64,000 bases of DNA from an uncultured delta proteobacterium (GTDB lineage Bacteria; Desulfobacterota; Binatia; UBA9968), in the NCBI GenBank assembly GCA_963745035.1, contig CAVUVW010000013.1, forward strand, positions 1,120,001 through 1,184,000. Direction: 5' to 3'. Below, piece by piece: positions 1-6,757 of this stretch. The position numbers and the translations under genes were made by a program. Position 1 is the first letter of the stretch, and every line of letters starts with the position of its first letter. A model generated the notes under the pieces. It searched no databases. It was given only the letters and a program-made list of their open reading frames with translations, and was not told where the DNA came from.

Positions 1-147
1 CAAGTTATTGGCAAGATGTTACTCTGATCAAACCGTGTTGGCGCGGAAACAATATGGAAACAGGAGCAACGAATAGATTACAACCTGGGGCTCAGCACGA
101 GCAGGGTTCAGCAGGTCCAGAACCAGAGTTGTGCAGCAGCGAGTCAG

Positions 148-285
148 AAGGGTGCTAAGCCGGCTGATCTGCCTGTGGAGCAGAGGAAGACGTTTGAATT
201 TGTCGTTAATCTCAAAACCGCCAAAGGGATCGGGCTCGACATTCCGCAGTCGGTGCTGTTCCGAGCCGACAGGGTGATCAAATGA
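148..285 (+). pseudogene. Orphan 3' tail of an ABC_sub_bind (DUF534-type) solute-binding protein gene
   Basis: Manual translation [45 protein letters not shown] matches the C-terminus of the intact paralog at 2544-3536; the upstream frame is unrelated and has no start. Confidence 0.85.
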
Positions 286-287
286 AG

Positions 288-363
288 CCAGGACTGAATT
301 GAATTCTCCATCAACGCAATCTCGCGTGGCATCACATTGAAGCGTCGTTCAGTTCAATCCTAG
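288..363 (+). repeat. ~75-bp hairpin element, copy 1
   Basis: CCA-GGACTGAATTGAA-TTCTCCATCAA...TTGAAGCGTCG-TTCAGTTCAATCC-TAG; imperfect 13-bp inverted arms. Confidence 0.9.
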
Positions 364-470
364 GTTGAAATTAGCCTTTTTCCCCTCGACGAATCCGGTT
401 TTTGTTCTGCCGTAAACAACCCTTTTTTAAGTCTCCGTGTTCGTGATAAATAAACTCACGAGGTGGGCTG

Positions 471-549
471 GTCAATCTGAAGACGGCCAAGCAGCTCGCC
501 TAACTATTCCGCCCAATGTCCTGGCCAGAGCGGATGGGTGATGAAGTGA
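471..549 (+). pseudogene. Orphan, frameshifted 3' tail of an ABC_sub_bind SBP gene
   Basis: Reads VNLKTAKQL/LTIPPNVLARAD/VMK* across two 1-nt shifts. Confidence 0.75.
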
Positions 550-586
550 ACATAGCCGACATGTCGCAACATACAAAGACTACTCA

Positions 587-1533
587 TGTGTCCTGCGATA
601 TACGCTCTGCTTATTGAAACTGGCTTTCTCGCTAATGCCAGCAGCCGAAAGCGGTATTTAAGATCGGAATGCTCTGGAGGCGTCCGGACTCGGGTTATTC
701 CGTGGAGAGCTGCGTGAGCTTGGCTACGTTGAAGGGAAGAACATAATTTCCGAGTACCGACAGAGTGATGGAAAGCTCGACCGCGTTCCTGCCCTTGTTG
801 ATGAGCTGATTCGCCAGAAAGTTGACGTGCTCGTCGCTTCCTCGACACCCGGCGCCATGCTGCCAAGAACGCTACTTCTACGATCCCGATTGTTTTTTTA
901 ACTGTGCCCGATCCTGTCGGAGCTGGGCTGGTCGATAGTCTCGCACAACCAGGCGGAAACATTACGGGAGTCGCAAACATTACCCCCGATATGGCCGGCA
1001 AACGACTGGAGTTGCTAAAAGAAACTATTCCGAAGATTTCCCGTGTTGCAGTGCTTTGGGACCCACAAATCCCAGGCTCCGCCGAATCCTGGAAAGAAAG
1101 CCGCGTGCCGGCGCAGGAACTGGGTCTACTCCTTCATTCCATGGAAATAAGCAGCGCGGACAATCTCGATGCGAAGTTCGAAGAAACGGTTCAGGCGCGT
1201 AGCTCGGCGCTCATGCTAGCGGGTGGCACATTGGCTACCGCCAATCAAAAAACAATCGCGGATCTCGCCATAAAAAATCGTTTGCCAACGATTTCTACGC
1301 GCACAGATTTCGTGGAAGCGGCGTCTTAATGTCGTATGGCTCTGACTTAAAAGAACCTTACAAGCGCGTGGCATCCATCGTTGATAAGATCCTCAAGGGG
1401 ACGAAGCCCGTCGACATCCCCGTCGAACAACCAACAAAGTTTAAGATGTATATTAACCTCAAAACAGCAAAAGCAGATCGGCCTGACGATTCCGCCGAAT
1501 GTGCTGGCGCGGGCGGATAAGGTGATCAAGTAA
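587..1533 (+). pseudogene. ABC_sub_bind SBP, multiply frameshifted; start approximate
   Basis: Pieces QQPKAVFKIG, LRELGYVEGKN, PDPVGAGLVDSLAQPGGNITG, MSYG...VDKILKGTKPVDIPVEQPTKF and IGLTIPPNVLARADKVIK* occur in order across about five frameshifts. Confidence 0.85.
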
Positions 1534-1546
1534 CCACCCGGCGACG

Positions 1547-1620
1547 CTAGGATTGAACTGAATTCTCCTACAACCAAATCCTGTGGAATTTGTCCGTTGC
1601 GTCGTTGAGTTCAACCCTAC
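1547..1620 (+). repeat. ~75-bp hairpin element, copy 2
   Basis: CTA-GGATTGAACTGAA-TTCTCCTACAA...GCGTCG-TTGAGTTCAACCC-TAC. Confidence 0.88.
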
Positions 1621-1729
1621 CGGCTTTTTTGTGATTGTCTAGCCGAACTAAGCCGCCGATTGTTAGGGAGTATGCGGCCCCGCCGGTCAGCTTTTGGCGG
1701 AAGCCGTTGAGCTGGGTGGCTGATGGATA

Positions 1730-1830
1730 TTGCAACCGATTTGGATTTTATTGTCGGAGCCACCGCTGGAGATAAGCGGACCGGCATTTGTCTCCGCTTA
1801 CGGTGGCTCAATTAAAGATACAAGTTAGGA
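1730..1830 (+). mobile_element. Degenerate attC-like site
   Basis: Imperfect palindrome GCAAC..TTGGATTTTATTG..GAGCCACCG / CGGTGGCTC-AATTAAAGATACAA-GTTAGGA; ends 8 nt before the next ATG, as in gene cassettes; left core is non-canonical. Confidence 0.4.
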
Positions 1831-1838
1831 CACAAAAT

Positions 1839-2264
1839 ATGCGAAATCTGATTACCCTCTCTCTTATCGTCTTGGTTACGGCTTGTGGGACTATGAGTGC
1901 AGACCGCAGTGGGACTGCGAAACAACAGGTGGCTGAAGCAACTGCCGCCTGGGTTGCGGCGTATAATAGCCGTGATCCGGGACGTATCACCTCGTTGTAT
2001 GACCCCGAAGCTGTGTTCTGGGGAACGTCAGCAAAAACAATTTCTGCAAGCCCAGTTGCGATTGCCGATTATTTTAAGGATGCCGGCAAGACCCCCGACG
2101 CGAGAGTTACTCTCGGCGAACAGCATATTCGCGTCTATGGCGATGTGGCCATAAACACGGGCTACTACACATTCAGGAGTCCTGCTCGTTTCACCGTTGT
2201 CTACCGAAATCGGAACGGAAAATGGTTGATCGTTGATCACCACTCATCACGAGTTCCGGGGTAG
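1839..2264 (+). CDS. NTF2-like SgcJ/EcaC/DUF4440-family lipoprotein, cassette-like gene
   Basis: Lipobox LVTAC; WVAAYNSRD...LYDPEAVFWGT...ARFTVVY...WLIVDHHSS signature; bracketed by GTTAGG and an attC-like site. Confidence 0.85.
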   Translation: MRNLITLSLIVLVTACGTMSADRSGTAKQQVAEATAAWVAAYNSRDPGRITSLYDPEAVFWGTSAKTISASPVAIADYFKDAGKTPDARVTLGEQHIRVYGDVAINTGYYTFRSPARFTVVYRNRNGKWLIVDHHSSRVPG

Positions 2265-2281
2265 TTAGTTGTTATTCTCGA

Positions 2282-2370
2282 GTCCAATTCTTCAGGTGGA
2301 GTGTACGGGCCGCAAGCGTTCTGCAACAGTCGGTGTCTGTGCTGGCCCGCCGCTCACCAAGACGTTAGTG
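2282..2370 (+). mobile_element. Integron attC-like site
   Basis: GTCCAAT (R'' with one mismatch)-5 nt-GGTGGAGTG...GGGCC/GGCCC...CGCTCACC-AAGAC-GTTAGTG (R'-like); extrahelical base in the L box; 17 nt after a stop codon. Confidence 0.7.
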
Positions 2371-2446
2371 CCAGGATTGAACTGAATTCTCCATCAAACC
2401 AATCTCCGTGATCATCAAATTGAAGCGTCGTTCAGTTCAATCTCAG
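2371..2446 (+). repeat. ~75-bp hairpin element, copy 3; abuts the attC
   Basis: CCA-GGATTGAACTGAA-TTCTCCATCAA...TTGAAGCGTCG-TTCAGTTCAATCT-CAG. Confidence 0.92.
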
Positions 2447-2543
2447 GCTAAATTTGGTCTTTTTCACTGGCCGATTCACTGTTGCCTTCGGTCGCAAATC
2501 TTAGTTTCCCTCTGATACAGCCCGCGTGATAAACATGTGGGCA

Positions 2544-3536
2544 ATGAGGAAAGCTGGTGTCTTATCTGTCTTGGTAATGCTTGCTGTTGCAGTCGTAGCC
2601 GAGGCGCAGCAGCCAACAAAAATCCCGCGGATCGGATACGTCTCAGGCACGGGCACTGCGACTAATCAAGGTCCGTACGTCGAAGCTCTGCGCCAAGGGC
2701 TGCGCGAAGTAGGTCACGTCGAGGGGAAAACCTTCGTGATCGAGTATCGCGCCGCGGAGGGACAGATAGAGCGCGTACCAAGCCTCGTCGAGGAACTAGT
2801 ACAACAAAAGGTCGATCTAATGATTGCTCCGGTTCCAAACGCCATCCGAGCCGCTAAACAGGCAACCAAGACGATTCCTATTGTTATGGTGGCCAGCATT
2901 GATCCGGTCGCAACCGGAATGATCGATAGCTTGGCACGTCCTGGTGGAAATTTGACTGGCATCTCCACCCTAAACCAAGACCTAAACGGCAAACGGCTAG
3001 AATTGCTCAAGGAGGTGGTCCCGCAGCTATCACGCGTGGGAATTCTTCTGGATAGGGGAAGTTCGAGCACGAGTTCTACGGTAGTGAATTTGAAGCAGTA
3101 TGAGGACGCGGCCAGGGTTCTCAAGATAGAAATCCAATCGCTTGAAGTCCACGGACCGAAGCCCGACCTGGAACCTATGTTTAATACAGCCGCCAAGTTG
3201 CGCATTGGGGGGCTGGTCACAATCACTAATGCCAACCTCTTTATCCAACAAAAGCGGCTCGCCGAACTCGCGATAAAACATAGGCTGCCTTCAATGTTCC
3301 AGGGAAGCACCTGGGTCGATTCAGGCGGCCTTATGTCCTATGCAACCGACGAACTTGGCGCGTTTCGCCGAGCCGCGACTTATGTGGATAAAATACTCAA
3401 GGGCACAAAGCCTGCTGATTTGCCGGTCGAGCAGACAACAAAGTTTGAATTCGTAGTCAACCTCAAAACCGCTAAACAAATCGGTCTCAACATTCCGGAG
3501 TCGGTGCTATTCCGAGCTGACAGAGTAGTCAAATGA
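2544..3536 (+). CDS. ABC transporter substrate-binding protein (ABC_sub_bind/DUF534 type), intact
   Basis: Signal peptide ending AEA-QQP; IPIVM, SLARPGGNLTG, GGLMSY and [23 protein letters not shown] motifs; alternative starts at 2526 and 2535. Confidence 0.93.
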   Translation: MRKAGVLSVLVMLAVAVVAEAQQPTKIPRIGYVSGTGTATNQGPYVEALRQGLREVGHVEGKTFVIEYRAAEGQIERVPSLVEELVQQKVDLMIAPVPNAIRAAKQATKTIPIVMVASIDPVATGMIDSLARPGGNLTGISTLNQDLNGKRLELLKEVVPQLSRVGILLDRGSSSTSSTVVNLKQYEDAARVLKIEIQSLEVHGPKPDLEPMFNTAAKLRIGGLVTITNANLFIQQKRLAELAIKHRLPSMFQGSTWVDSGGLMSYATDELGAFRRAATYVDKILKGTKPADLPVEQTTKFEFVVNLKTAKQIGLNIPESVLFRADRVVK

Positions 3537-3590
3537 TACTGTTCCGTTGCCGTTGCCAGTGGTCAGCGGTTACCAAGAGCGTCTTCGCCA

Positions 3591-3674
3591 TTCGTTAATC
3601 TTAAAACCGCCAAGCAAATCGGCCTGAAAATTCCGGCTAATGTGCTGGCGAGGGCGAATAAGGTGATCAAATAA
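3591..3674 (+). pseudogene. Orphan 3' tail of an ABC_sub_bind SBP gene
   Basis: FVNLKTAKQIGLKIPANVLARANKVIK* in frame, no start. Confidence 0.85.
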
Positions 3675-3686
3675 CGAGGCGGCGTC

Positions 3687-3724
3687 CCAGGATTGAACTG
3701 TATTCTCCATCAATTCAATTTCAG
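3687..3724 (+). repeat. Hairpin element, copy 4, internally deleted
   Basis: CCA-GGATTGAACTGTA-TTCTCCATCAA joined directly to TTCAATTTCAG. Confidence 0.75.
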
Positions 3725-3809
3725 GTCGATGACCCTGGAGTGCTACGGTCCGTGCTGCCCGGCCCTTTTCCTGCGCGGGCGGACAGAGTGATAAAATAAG
3801 GAGCGCATT

Positions 3810-4472
3810 ATGATCGGTGCCAAGGCTCTGTTAGAAGGGATTCGGCAAGATTTGCAGCCCGTCACGGAACAGCTTCTGGGGCATCCTTACGTGAAGGCTC
3901 TGGAGGAAGGGCAGATTGAGCGGGAGAAGCTCCGTCTTTTTGCCGGCGAGCAGTACAGCATCATAGCGAGTGATCTCAAAAGCGTCGCTTATTTGCTTAG
4001 CCGCTTCGGTAGCGCTCCGAGCCGTGATTTCTTTCTCGGAATCCTGCAGGGTGAAAGAGCTGCCTGGGATGGCTTGCTAACGTTCGTCAATGCCCTCGGC
4101 CTAAGCGAAGCTCAACTGAGCAAGCACGAGCCAGCGGCTGGCGCTCATGCCTACACCTGCTACATGGCGTGGCTTGCGCTCTATGCCTCTGACGCCGAGA
4201 TTGCTGCTGCCTACCTGGTCAATTTTCCAGCGTGGGGTCAGAACTGTGGCCGCCTGAGCCGGATTCTGAAAGAGCGTTTCGGTATGGGCGAGAAGGAAGT
4301 CGCTTTTTTTGATCTCTTCGCCTCTCCTCCAACTACATTTGAAGCCGACGCTCTGAAAGTTATTCAGCAGGGACTCGATCGAGGCATCGAGCCGAGCCTG
4401 ATCCAACGGGCGGCTCGGTTACTCCAGGCCTACGAGCTCATGTATTGGGATACCCTCTACGGGGCGTCTTAG
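3810..4472 (+). CDS. TenA/THI-4/PqqC-fold (heme-oxygenase-like) protein
   Basis: HPYVKALEEG, EQYSIIASD and RLLQAYELMYWD motifs; AAGGAG RBS. Confidence 0.8.
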   Translation: MIGAKALLEGIRQDLQPVTEQLLGHPYVKALEEGQIEREKLRLFAGEQYSIIASDLKSVAYLLSRFGSAPSRDFFLGILQGERAAWDGLLTFVNALGLSEAQLSKHEPAAGAHAYTCYMAWLALYASDAEIAAAYLVNFPAWGQNCGRLSRILKERFGMGEKEVAFFDLFASPPTTFEADALKVIQQGLDRGIEPSLIQRAARLLQAYELMYWDTLYGAS

Positions 4473-4474
4473 CC

Positions 4475-4506
4475 GTGCTGGCAGGGCGGATAAAGTGATC
4501 GAGTGA
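4475..4506 (+). pseudogene. Very short SBP 3' tail remnant
   Basis: GTGCTGGCAGGGCGGATAAAGTGATCGAGTGA reads VLA/RADKVIE* with one shift; starts 2 nt after the TenA stop. Confidence 0.65.
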
Positions 4507-4529
4507 GCGAAGAAAACCAAGCGGCAATG

Positions 4530-4600
4530 CTAGGATTGAACTGAATTGTCCATCAATCTTAAACCACATCAAATTGAAGCGTCGTTCAGTTCAATGCTGG
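4530..4600 (+). repeat. ~75-bp hairpin element, copy 5
   Basis: CTA-GGATTGAACTGAA-TTGTCCATCAA...TTGAAGCGTCG-TTCAGTTCAATGC-TGG. Confidence 0.9.
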
Positions 4601-4902
4601 AATATAAATTCAGATCAACCCGGACATTTTGCAGACAGCTTAGGAAAAACTAGCGCCACGAAGCTAGAATAGACGGCCTGCTTAAAAGGCAATCAGAGAG
4701 TACTAACAAGTACCACATCATACTAAAACTCCTCGCATGCTTTCCCGCACGGAAATACTACATCGTACAGAGCCGTTTTGGCGGCAGTTCACGCACAAAA
4801 GGCGCACAAAACACGGCAGCGGTTTGGCCAAAATCATGTCCTTGACAGACTTTAGCGATCTAGGCGATATTTTGCGCGGTTAAACCCGCAAGGTCATCCT
4901 CG

Positions 4903-5355
4903 ATGGATCAATCAGTCGTCAGCGCGTTATCAGCGATCTTGGGTTCACTGGTTGGCGGTTCGGCCACCATTGCAACTGCTTGGATTACACAGAAGACGCA
5001 AAGCAGACGCGAGTTAGTCGGCGCCGAGATTCGAAAGCGAGAACTACTCTATACTGAGTTTATTGACGAGTGCTCGAAGCTGGCCATTGACGCTTTGGAC
5101 CACACGCTCGATGACACCACGAAGGTTTTTCGCGTTTACGCACTTTCAAGTCGCATCAGGCTCACATCGTCCGACATGGTGGTTGCGGCCGCAGATCAGA
5201 CCGTAAAGCATATTCTCACGAGCTATTTCAGGCCTAACATGACGAGGGAAGAGATTCGAGATCTGGCCCTTTCCGGAACTGCTGAAAAAGATCCGCTTAC
5301 GCAATTCAGCGAAGCCTGTCGAAACGAGCTTAAAGCATTGCAATCTGGCTTCTGA
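4903..5355 (+). CDS. Hypothetical protein with N-terminal transmembrane helix
   Basis: 150-aa ORF; hydrophobic N-terminus followed by a helical charged domain. Confidence 0.75.
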   Translation: MDQSVVSALSAILGSLVGGSATIATAWITQKTQSRRELVGAEIRKRELLYTEFIDECSKLAIDALDHTLDDTTKVFRVYALSSRIRLTSSDMVVAAADQTVKHILTSYFRPNMTREEIRDLALSGTAEKDPLTQFSEACRNELKALQSGF

Positions 5356-5511
5356 CGAAGCAGCTCGTCCGTCCACAAGGAAGCCTGTTACGGCAATTCG
5401 TATAATTCAAATCCTTATCAGAATCCCCGCCGCCGATAAATAATTTGCCTGAAACGAGGCGATCAATCACCCGTAGGCAGTGCCACTAAAAACATGGTGC
5501 GGAGGCCGCAA

Positions 5512-5631
5512 ATGAAAACTACTTTGAAATTATTCATTTTGGTCGCCAGCATTTTTGTGATGACGACTATGCCTAACCAGTGCGGGAACCGGACCGCCCA
5601 AGTCGCAGCTGAGAGTTTCTTGGCGGAGTGA
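5512..5631 (+). pseudogene. Truncated cassette-like ORF: signal peptide fused to an attC left half
   Basis: GGAGG RBS; MKTTLKLFILVASIFVMTT runs straight into GCCTAAC (perfect R'' at 5571) and a CCGCCCAAG/CTTGGCGG stem. Confidence 0.45.
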
Positions 5632-5638
5632 GGGTGGT

Positions 5639-5708
5639 GGCTAACCCTTCCATCGAGCAGACGGGCTGCCGGTGCGCGTCTCCAGCCGCCGCTCATCAAA
5701 CGTTAGTG
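5639..5708 (+). mobile_element. Integron attC-like site (70 bp)
   Basis: GGCTAAC-CCTTC-CATCGAGC-AGAC-GGGCTG...CAGCC-GCC-GCTCAT-CAAAC-GTTAGTG: R''/L''/L'/R' layout with an extrahelical base. Confidence 0.8.
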
Positions 5709-5782
5709 TTAGAATTGAACTGAATTCTCCTACAAAATTAATCCAGAGAATCTGCCTGAGGCATCGTTTATTTCAAACGTAC
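5709..5782 (+). repeat. Hairpin element, copy 6; abuts the attC, right arm overlaps the cupin stop
   Basis: TTA-GAATTGAACTGAA-TTCTCCTACAA...GGCATCG-TTTATTTCAAACG-TAC. Confidence 0.75.
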
Positions 5783-6091
5783 GGCGAGCCAAACCGTATT
5801 CGCGCTGGTGCGCGCCACTCGATGGCGCACGCTGCGCGGGATCATTACATAATCGCCTTCGCTCATTTCAACGATTTGACCGTCGGTGAATTCTAGCGCC
5901 GCCGTGCCGCGCAGCACGATCACCCATTCGTCTTCGGCTTGATCGTACCAGAACCCGGCCGGACTGCTGTGCGAGTGCGAGACGATTCGCTCGATCCTGA
6001 CGGCGCCGCTTTCGAACAAGACGAAAAAGTCTTCCGAGCTTGCCGCGTTTCCGGCGGCGTCGAAGATATTTCCCGCATTGGGGCGCGCCAT
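5768..6091 (-). CDS. Cupin domain protein
   Basis: RIERIVSHSHSSPAGFWYDQAEDEWVIVLRG...IPRSVRHRV; real start MARPNAGNIF inside the longer spurious ORF. Confidence 0.88.
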   Translation of the reverse strand: MARPNAGNIFDAAGNAASSEDFFVLFESGAVRIERIVSHSHSSPAGFWYDQAEDEWVIVLRGTAALEFTDGQIVEMSEGDYVMIPRSVRHRVARTSANTVWLAVRLK

Positions 6092-6093
6092 CG

Positions 6094-6757
6094 TTACATC
6101 CGCGCCCGGCGAATCGCCGGCACGTCGACGATGCGGCGCTGGCCCGGCGCCGGCGGGTTTTCCACCGCGCTGACGAGCGCGGTGATCATCTGCTCGATAC
6201 TGATCAGGCCAAGCCGCTCCGCCGTTGCCCGCGTGGCGGGTATCATTTCGGCGAGTCTGTAAAGCGGCTTGATCAGCACCGGCCAGCGACGGCCCGGACC
6301 GAGCACGTACCACGGCCGCAGGATCGTCGCCGCCAAACCGGATTCGCGAATGATCGTTTCTCCGAGAGTGCGCACCCACAAGTAGGCCTGCATGATCGGC
6401 GCCGGCTGGGCGACGCTGACGTAGATCAGATGAGCGGCGCCGATTTTTTTCGCTGCCGCCACGGTGGCGCGAATCGAAACCAGATCGATCTTCTCGAATT
6501 GATCGGCCTTGCTCGGAGTGGGATGGGGCGTGCCGACCAGATGAATCACCGTGTCGTCGGACCGCAACTCCGCCTCGATCGATGTGGCTTCGAGGGCGTC
6601 GCCGATGACCGACGTCGCGCCCGCGGGAACACGGCCCACCGACGCCGCGCGCGCGAGCGCGCGCACCCGATGCCCGCGCGCAAGCAGCACGGGAATCAAT
6701 TGAGCGCCGATGTAGCCGGTGCCGCCGGTGACAAAAATATTGAGTGGTGAGTGCCAT
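6094..6757 (-). CDS. NAD(P)-binding atypical SDR/epimerase (NmrA-like); 1-nt frameshift near start
   Basis: NIFVTGGTGYIG lies upstream in frame with ORF 6094-6699; the ATG at 6757 is one base out of frame. Confidence 0.85.

Follow-up and report, generated by a model that had tools for sequence, protein, structure and literature searches.

This locus raises the question of why two different attC sites in one stretch of DNA run into the same hairpin at the same distance. The stretch, referred to as the window, comprises 64,000 nucleotides (positions 1,120,001-1,184,000 of contig CAVUVW010000013.1, or C13 for short) of a host genome, G000, of 7.4 Mb in 28 contigs. At 2364-2370 the core GTTAGTG ends the first attC and is followed by CCAGGATTGAACTG, and at 5702-5708 the same core ends the second attC and is followed by TTAGAATTGAACTG. 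When the pattern GTTAGTGNNAGRATTGAACTG was searched for, there were two exact matches (2364 and 5702) and one match at 3 mismatches (4523) compared to an expectation of 0.02, and none of 100 shuffles gave three matches. The initial annotation of this DNA had reported GTTAGTG joined to the hairpin at both positions, and this is confirmed. It had also stated that there is no spacer, which is nearly so, but the hairpin arm ATTGAAC begins 5 nt past the 7-bp core and 12 nt past the G at which the integron integrase, IntI, crosses over (G|TT). The distance from this core G to the first base of ATTGAAC is called the offset. The explanation that we favour, with a probability of roughly 0.5, is that IntI inserted cassettes at attI sites whose right flank already held HE, the element of which the hairpin is a miniature, and that TTAGTG and the hairpin are derived from the recipient, which is what the initial annotation had inferred.

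The junction is not confined to these two sites. Twelve core-hairpin junctions were found in the host genome, 8 at offset 12, 3 at offset 11 and 1 at offset 13, and the attCs on their left, which are canonical and measure 55-93 nt, differ from one another. In the relatives, a search for GTTA, 2-16 nt and the left arm of the hairpin gave 41 rows with zero mismatches, which were counted by hand, and 141 further matches outside this count. Among the 41 rows the offset was 12 in 27, 11 in 2 and 13 in 3, and the others were at 6 (three), 9, 10 and 19-20 (four). The initial annotation held that the sequence to the right of G|TT is the same context for different attCs, and this is borne out by the 12 junctions of the host genome and by 27 of the 41 rows in the relatives. 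It had also named a lack of further fusions, or variable offsets, as what would speak against it; in the host genome and its relatives the fusions recur and the offset is mostly 12.

According to the passages on site structure in PMC2727003, an attC is defined by an L''/L' stem whose R''-L'' arm carries an extra base, and by unpaired spacers that differ in length. The attC at 5639-5708 is canonical in that GGCTAAC (RYYYAAC) and GTTAGTG (GTTRRRY) are complementary at 5 of 7 bases, the ATCGAGC/GCTCAT stem has an extra C on its 5' arm, and the spacers, CCTTCC (6 nt) and CAAAC (5 nt), are unequal. The attC at 2282-2370, by reading and fold, consists of R'' GTCCAAT, L'' GGTGGAGTG, L' CGCTCACC and R' GTTAGTG; its inverse core is mutated, having AAT instead of AAC, while the L boxes and R' are kept, and it looks like a decayed attC. 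Both sites had been described as well formed, which holds for the second but not for the first. In DNA folding energy neither of the two window attCs is better than its shuffles (z -1.58 and -0.04), whereas the hairpin is (z -3.24; 0 of 200 shuffles as good). A home-made attC grammar scan (176 genome-wide matches, unclustered) and a relaxed L'-R' regular expression (124 matches, largely noise) were left out of the counts, and no attC covariance model was built because the MAFFT alignments of classical attCs were too poor.

The evidence for a recipient origin of the hairpin comes from what lies to the left of the cassettes. Six HE copies of the host genome have on their right a conserved module of about 210 nt, or about 250 nt when aligned together with the HE right arm, which we call the P-module; one copy is in the window (1588-1825) and the others are on contigs C10, C11, C14, C17 and C26. 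The homology between the copies ends exactly at CTCACTTAATAG|TTAG (TTAATAG|TTAG), and each is followed by a different open reading frame (ORF). The module contains a TTGACA-17-GATATT promoter and three ATARGCCG-like repeats, recognised by eye, that are candidate IntI-binding sites. The only intI of the genome is at C6:42038-43087 (TIGR02249, 445 bits), and beside it, at C6:41894, is the core TTCACTTAATAG|TTAG. The P-module aligns with the stretch from the intI stop codon to the first cassette, and its 5' part matches the 3' end of intI. This homology to the intI-linked attI, core included, points to an attI region without an integrase, and from its sequence we take the P-module to be an attI region with the last few dozen bases of intI whose integrase has been lost, in short an orphan attI.

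With at most one mismatch to CTCACTTAATAG|TTAG, eleven attI-type cores were found in the host genome, at C3:14826, C6:35570, C6:41894, C10:18440, C11:148323, C14:612950, C14:1048262, C17:1539, C19:202520, C26:81063 and C27:53016. Each is followed by a different sequence, TTGACA-N16-18-GATATT is present upstream of 7, and 10 of the 11 do not adjoin intI, C6:41894 being the only one that does. Five of these cores have an HE right arm 196-210 nt upstream, and all five have an attC core joined to an HE left arm 1.0-1.8 kb downstream, whereas none of the six cores without an upstream HE, the intI-linked one included, has an HE within 6 kb. The window sequence 1621-1824, which has a degenerate core, belongs to a sixth unit of the order HE - attI - cassette - attC - HE. 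An attI-like promoter module, overlooked in the initial annotation, is found upstream of each window cassette, that of the 5702 junction being a diverged, P-module-like leader that keeps the promoter-like TTGACA-18-GATATT at 4842-4871 (+ strand); it has the hexamers of the P-modules and is the best such site in 1-6000 (10/12).

In the relatives, attI and the hairpin are also found directly adjacent. The attI module of G056, which has a remnant of the intI N-terminus upstream, ends CACTTAATGG|TTAACCCTGAA and passes at offset 12 directly into a full hairpin. In G041, an unpublished genome that is the source of this one example, an intact IntI has an attI core beside it that is joined at 12 nt to a hairpin left arm only; G057 has a degenerate case of the same adjacency. 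The sequence TTARNN + 5 nt + hairpin thus directly follows an attI-type core, which fits the first of the options offered by the initial annotation, namely that the left flank of the hairpin is an attI-like site. Moreover, the right flanks of HE are a few conserved leaders or core genes and not arbitrary or interrupted cassette starts.

We favour insertion at a pre-existing attI next to HE because of the attI-hairpin adjacency at the same register, the pairing in five of five against none of six cores, and the conserved right flanks of HE. A plausible course of events is that one integron-platform lineage in the bacterial family that carries the hairpin lost its intI. The platform would have consisted of an HE, the attI module of about 210 nt with its outward promoter and the core CACTTAATAG|TTAG, and a second HE beginning 12 nt after the attI crossover G. 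The single genomic IntI, acting in trans, would then have inserted cassettes at G|TT, so that the bases after the G of the last attC would be the recipient attI flank and not part of that attC, and the last attC of each small array would end G|TTARNN + 5 nt + hairpin. The part of IntI in making the junctions and the order of these events are inferred from the arrangement of the present sequences, and so is any activity of HE.

A number of observations weigh against this reading. Double cores, in which GTTAACC + 5 nt + hairpin comes immediately after a complete GTTAGSC, are present in four relatives (G014:C261:13890, G032:C172:51447, G048 at L049:8688 and G034 at L042:102), and a single G|TT exchange does not predict tandem cores. 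In the host genome 4 of the 12 junctions have no recognisable attI core upstream; of the two window junctions, the first is preceded by no more than a degenerate core (1824) and the second by no more than a promoter (4842-4871). No empty HE-attI-HE unit was found in the host genome, and attI-hairpin adjacencies number only 3-4 among the 90 family genomes surveyed. Across these genomes the presence of the hairpin and that of IntI are not associated, both being present in 19 compared to 20 expected. No recombination event was seen, the assembled contigs of public metagenome runs giving no usable junction. Finally, full-length HE copies stand directly after attC-like ends (L070, L071 and L075), which fits targeting by HE itself equally well.

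This last point leads to the nature of HE. Its left end, ATTGAAYTGAWTTCTCC, and its right end, GCGTCGTTCAGTTCAAT, the outer 11 nt of which are inverted repeats, flank a gene for a XerC/D-like tyrosine recombinase in the autonomous copies. On contig C23 of G014, where IntI is also found, a gene for a recombinase of 307 aa is present twice, exactly between ATTGAACTGAWTTCTCC and GCGTCGWTCRATTCAAT. Since the recombinase gene lies between the conserved ends of the hairpin, the hairpins of about 75 nt are non-autonomous miniatures of an element of about 1.05 kb, similar to miniature inverted-repeat transposable elements (MITEs), and it is this element that we named HE. The recombinase (P0121) scores 199 bits with the XerD model (cut-off 330) and 198 bits with the XerC model (cut-off 335), below both equivalog cut-offs. 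It is not an IntI, as it scores 59.8 bits with TIGR02249 (cut-off 265) in its C-terminal part only, and in BLASTP only 38 residues align with the IntI of the host genome; it appears to be a generic Xer-like tyrosine recombinase. The gene was found in 4 of the 90 family genomes, twice in G014, twice in G015 (one copy split) and once each in G010 and the host genome, where it carries one in-frame TGA (C11:129958-130866), and both HE ends are present in 5 of these 6 copies. In metagenomes there are over a hundred clusters of close recombinases, annotated as XerC or XerD only. The HE ends were also seen around the gene in soil metagenome contigs: of 33 metagenome loci, 23 extend far enough to show a left end, which 12 of them have, and 30 far enough to show a right end, which 19 have. 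The loci without HE ends include the five relatives of about 50% identity.

The main rival explanation, which is possible but in our opinion rather doubtful, is that this recombinase integrates HE 5 nt after the GTTRRRY cores of attC and attI. The core would then mimic the HE right arm GTTCAAT and the fixed offset would be the register of the target, as for IS1111-attC insertion sequences or group IIC-attC introns. What speaks for it is that the hairpin is a miniature of a recombinase-bearing element, that full-length copies follow attC-like ends in the same register (GTTAACC+CTAGA at L070 and GTTGGCC+GTAAG at L071), and that the junction is found after attI as well as after many unrelated attCs. 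The joined ends of HE (GTTCAATCCT + AGGATTGAAC) would moreover form a perfect palindrome in which the distance from G to ATTGAAC is 13, close to the observed 12. Integration of this kind does not explain, however, why 13 of the 31 left-arm copies in the host genome follow the ends of genes for substrate-binding proteins that have no GTT core at that register and 7 more are in other contexts, or why the right flanks are a few conserved leaders and not the interrupted next cassette, and the pairing of HE around attI in five of five against none of six cases is not expected from independent insertions. The recombinase is also present in few of the family genomes compared to the hairpin, and the copy in the host genome has its in-frame stop. 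A site of joined ends was not found above background either: the pattern CAGTTCAAT N0-30 ATTGAAYTG was present in 19 of 90 genomes, where its spacers are heterogeneous, and its reversed control in 10, which gives no support for a dif-like site. The option of an attC-targeting element, also raised by the initial annotation, is therefore right as to the recombinase-bearing element behind the hairpin, but targeting by HE is only putative.

A second alternative, which we regard as improbable, is that the hairpin is itself an attC-type site for IntI. Each attC-hairpin pair would then represent a mini-cassette that lacks a gene (TTARNN + 5 nt + hairpin). The genes for ABC-type substrate-binding proteins (SBPs) that carry one hairpin each would be cassettes with the hairpin as their attC. 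The arms, ATTGAAC ... GTTCAAT, do have the shapes of an inverse core and a core with AAC and GTT triplets, the order of stem, internal loop, second stem and variable loop resembles that of an attC, there is one hairpin per SBP gene in the orientation of the gene, and the unit starts immediately past G|TT. By the features given in those passages of PMC2727003, however, the fold is not that of an attC. From ATTGAAC to the inner stem, that is from R to L, there are 10 nt, of which 4 are paired and the others make up an internal loop, symmetric at about 6 x 6, and the folds show neither the unpaired 5-6-nt spacer between R and L boxes nor single-base bulges or one-sided extrahelical bases. In an alignment of 17 full copies the arms ATTGAAyTGAA and TTCAGTTCAAT are invariant and the terminal loop is variable; the unpaired TTCTCC and GCGTCG of the internal loop are invariant too, unlike in attCs. 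The hairpin right arm is followed by TTAG in none of 332 loose matches in the host genome (TTCAAT follows 25) and in 1 of 49 in the loci of the relatives (L058:9122). Besides, the hairpin is not associated with IntI, and in the full-length copies a recombinase gene would lie within the site. Thus, of the options put forward by the initial annotation, that of a gene-less cassette is the least supported, given the R-L spacing, the misfit of the extrahelical pattern, the lack of a hairpin-to-TTAG hybrid in the host genome and the lack of association with IntI.

That the hairpin acts as RNA, as a terminator, stabiliser or 5'-leader of SBP transcripts that is next to attC only incidentally, is very improbable, because its constant orientation with the flanking genes, its place between SBP genes with conserved leaders to the right and its conserved unpaired loop bases, CUCC included, are outweighed by the lack of a T-run or a terminator call at any hairpin copy, of an Rfam family (one chance match, E 0.65) and of compensatory pairs in the arms by RNAalifold, by half-copies and island-end copies beside unrelated genes, by the recombinase gene between the arms, by insertions of IS91-like elements at one point of the right arm and by the 12-nt register to G|TT, which it leaves unexplained. 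The hairpin is neither a canonical attC nor a known RNA.

The IS91-like elements were found inside hairpins at L050:7065-9577 (G044), L051:2583-4719 (G016), L049:2903-5378 and L056 (both G048). They consist of a 278-aa ORF of the phage integrase family and a 391-aa Y2_Tnp/Zn_Tnp_IS91 transposase, of the Y2 HUH type with a zinc-binding domain (PF04986, 190 bits; PF14319, 113 bits). In two genomes the hairpin is broken by such an element at the same point, after GCGTCGTT and before GGACTAAACCGCTTCGCGGTGG, which suggests that the GTTC-rich right arm is a target of these elements. The 278-aa recombinase class (about 100 bits with TIGR02249) was considered as the enzyme of the hairpin and rejected, as it belongs to these insertions.

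At five or fewer substitutions there are 31 left-arm copies in about twelve islands of the host genome, and with a profile 59 matches reach E <= 1, a figure that includes partial copies and echoes on the opposite strand. When the left flanks of the 31 copies were classified by reading, the commonest was an SBP gene end (...RADKVIK*), a context that the initial annotation had overlooked, with 13 copies compared to 11 for attC-type cores, and 5 copies were in two other repeated contexts and 2 elsewhere. Among the attCs seen, those at the four C6 cassette ends (one of them uncertain) and a few others read by eye are not followed by the hairpin. The 90 genomes of the hairpin family represent 23 genera, and the proteins of the relatives are labelled Candidatus Binatia. 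The hairpin pattern was found in 43 of these genomes and 12 of these genera, while the reversed pattern, used as a control, was found once each in two genomes. Among genomes sampled across the class, the hairpin was present in 14 of 63 from the family compared to 2 of 337 from 19 other families, and both matches outside the family look like chance. As to target-site duplication, the 5-6 nt that flank the hairpin (e.g. CCAGG / CTCAGG) are near-palindromic, so that direct and inverted repeats cannot be told apart.

The usual view of an integron is that of one integrase with one attI and one array, or of attC clusters that lack both. In the host genome a single intI is accompanied by 11 attI-type cores, 7 of them with a matching promoter. 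The parts are known ones, namely IntI, attI, attC and the cassette promoter Pc, together with a MITE-like element. The genuine IntI, the classical attCs, the break of homology at G|TT and the promoter upstream of the insertion point are as in attI x attC insertion. What differs from a usual integron is that 10 of the 11 cores are without intI, that five platforms, or six with the window copy, are bracketed by a recombinase-derived hairpin, and that intI is co-directional with its cassettes. What is new is an element bounded by inverted repeats, with a Xer-like recombinase and abundant hairpin miniatures, that is confined to one family, stands at a fixed register to integron cores and brackets multiple orphan attI/promoter platforms.

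Mobile elements that target attC are known, namely IS1111-attC insertion sequences and group IIC-attC introns. HE resembles them in that it is derived from a mobile element and stands in one orientation at a fixed register to integron sites. Unlike them, it has a XerC/D-like tyrosine recombinase in place of a DEDD transposase or a reverse-transcriptase ribozyme, it lies just outside the attC, after R', and not within it, most of its copies are 75-nt miniatures, and copies in other contexts (13 of 31 after SBP ends) outnumber those after core sites (11 of 31). Like a MITE, the hairpin is short, non-coding and of high copy number, and its terminal inverted repeats are shared with a longer relative that encodes an enzyme, but this enzyme is a tyrosine recombinase and not a DDE transposase, there is no clear target-site duplication, and the sub-terminal TTCTCC and GCGTCG are better conserved than the loop. 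With Xer/dif systems HE shares a recombinase that scores best with the XerD and XerC models and arms that are 11-nt inverted repeats; the scores are, however, far under the equivalog cut-offs, the arms are 50 nt or 1 kb apart and not separated by a 6-8-bp spacer, and no dif-like joined site was found for HE. The gene-less, promoter-bearing cassettes of Vibrio superintegrons, as described in PMC11014356, are similar in being non-coding modules with outward promoters within cassette arrays, whereas the P-module has its homology with the attI region and the intI 3' end, ends in an attI core and not in an attC, and travels with HE. The literature that we searched, which lay outside subscription, contained no paper pairing the integron with Binatia, none on an 'orphan attI' and none on such a hairpin.

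A tentative extension, for which we would give fairly long odds, is that HE captured the attI and promoter end of an integron and spreads an integrase-less platform for cassette recruitment (HE - attI/Pc - cassettes - HE), one chromosomal IntI serving about ten scattered arrays in trans. More boldly, the platforms might be worked by the recombinase of HE, with the hairpins as attC equivalents for the SBP arrays, and this would make a second integron system, of a Xer-like kind. Movement of hairpin-flanked units, if it takes place, would show how cassette-capture sites, and not cassettes alone, come to be spread around genomes. The fixed 12-nt register is an exact prediction that is testable for IntI as well as for the Xer-like recombinase. 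Both the hairpin and the core of attI are also simple sequence markers by which platforms could be found in soil metagenomes; the integron finders now in use report there only attCs that lack an integrase. CALIN and In0 are the integron categories given in PMC4889954.

In the window the hairpins are part of a low-GC (guanine-plus-cytosine) island that makes up its first 5.8 kb (51-52% GC, compared to about 60% in the rest). Together with upstream contig sequence the island extends over C13:1118765-1125785, between an MFS transporter gene on one side and a cupin gene on the other. The window has six left arms (290, 1549, 2373, 3689, 4532 and 5711), all within the island and on the + strand, which is also the strand of every window feature of the island given below. 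Two modules, 1621-2447 and about 4604-5785, are interleaved with SBP units that carry HE. From the left, a C-terminal fragment of a PF04392-type SBP (130-285) ends ...RADRVIK*, the same end as that of the intact SBP further on, and is followed by hairpin no. 1, a full copy (290-364; nhmmer E 2.8e-23). A frameshifted SBP pseudogene (365-1533), with broken frames and BLASTN similarity to other SBP units, ends RADKVIK* and precedes hairpin no. 2 (1549-1620; arm and profile search), whose right arm has diverged to GTTCAAC. The P-module copy at 1621-1824 has the degenerate core ...CAATTAAAGATACAAG|TTAGGAC with the G at 1824; it aligns with the five other copies and with the intI-linked attI, and its homology ends at G|TTAG. 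There cassette 1 begins (1825-2364), which consists of a DUF4440/SnoaL-like ORF (ATG 1839, stop 2264; PF14534/PF13474 by Pfam) and attC no. 1. Hairpin no. 3 (2373-2447; arm, profile search and fold) has its ATTGAAC 12 nt after G 2364, and after a conserved 'type 1' leader comes the intact SBP gene of 336 aa (2526-3536; PF04392, E 1.7e-43).

The second SBP C-terminal fragment (3594-3674, ...RANKVIK*) was read from the sequence. Hairpin no. 4 (3689-3725; model positions 2-43) has an internal deletion that fuses its left arm to TTCAATTTCAGG. It is followed by a TENA/THI-4/PqqC-family ORF (3810-4472; Pfam search), an SBP gene-end remnant of 30 nt (4475-4506, ...RADKVIE*) and hairpin no. 5 (4532-4600; arm, profile search and fold). 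The unit 3687-4595 is duplicated with 98.4% identity at C11:147199-148112, the SBP remnant included, and the unit 4573-5509 is duplicated with 98.2% identity at C6:4013-4951. In both duplicated units the homology begins and stops inside hairpins; that of the C6 duplicate stops at 5509, just upstream of a 39-aa ORF. A joint from 3708 to 4573, with 24 other letters between, was seen in all four public runs examined and was not used because its 22-letter sides lie within repeat arms and any hairpin copy could be the source. To the right of the 4842-4871 promoter are an ORF of 150 aa with no Pfam family (4903-5355), the 39-aa ORF (5512-5631, read from the sequence), which has a signal-peptide-like N-terminus, and attC no. 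2, as parsed above. Hairpin no. 6 (5711-5785; E 5.2e-08), at the island end, has its ATTGAAC 12 nt after G 5702; it is decayed but covers model positions 2-80, a full-length copy and not a truncated one. The cupin-domain gene on the - strand (5768-6757; Pfam and GC profile) is the first of the 60%-GC core genome to the right. Its homologues, found in 3 of 30 genus genomes, have at most 51% identity and are too distant for an empty-site comparison.

The non-SBP genes of the window are followed by SBP gene-end remnants of 30-80 nt (130-285, 3594-3674 and 4475-4506), and it looks as if genes had replaced the SBP bodies while the SBP end and the hairpin were retained. Relatives have stretches of tens of kb in which PF04392 SBP genes stand in tandem, every gene with a hairpin of its own after it (L057, L058; G016 C85 and C50).

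In the complete integron of the host genome (L012; C6:38900-43087) intI is co-directional with four cassettes and its stop codon is within the attI repeat region, and no hairpin comes after any of the four cassette ends, three of which parse as attCs, the fourth being uncertain. At about 10250-10350 of L012 (C6:43250-43350), in the interval that separates intI from a LexA-like gene, there is an inverted array of GTTCAA octamers (GTTCAAACCGTTCAAGAGTTCAAGGTTCAAC ... and its mirror image); such repeats elsewhere yield spurious ORFs of the 'LNGLNDLN' type, and the motif is shared with the hairpin arms. Just to the left of the window, a look-alike of a tRNA 3'-half was seen by eye inside the island on the minus strand (L016:9891-9941; C13:1119890-1119940). 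Four metagenome runs, from soil, rhizosphere and winery samples, have summed contig depths of 74 to 2049 at window 1450-1656, compared to single digits nearby; the SBP gene end with the hairpin left arm is a very high-copy repeat in these samples.

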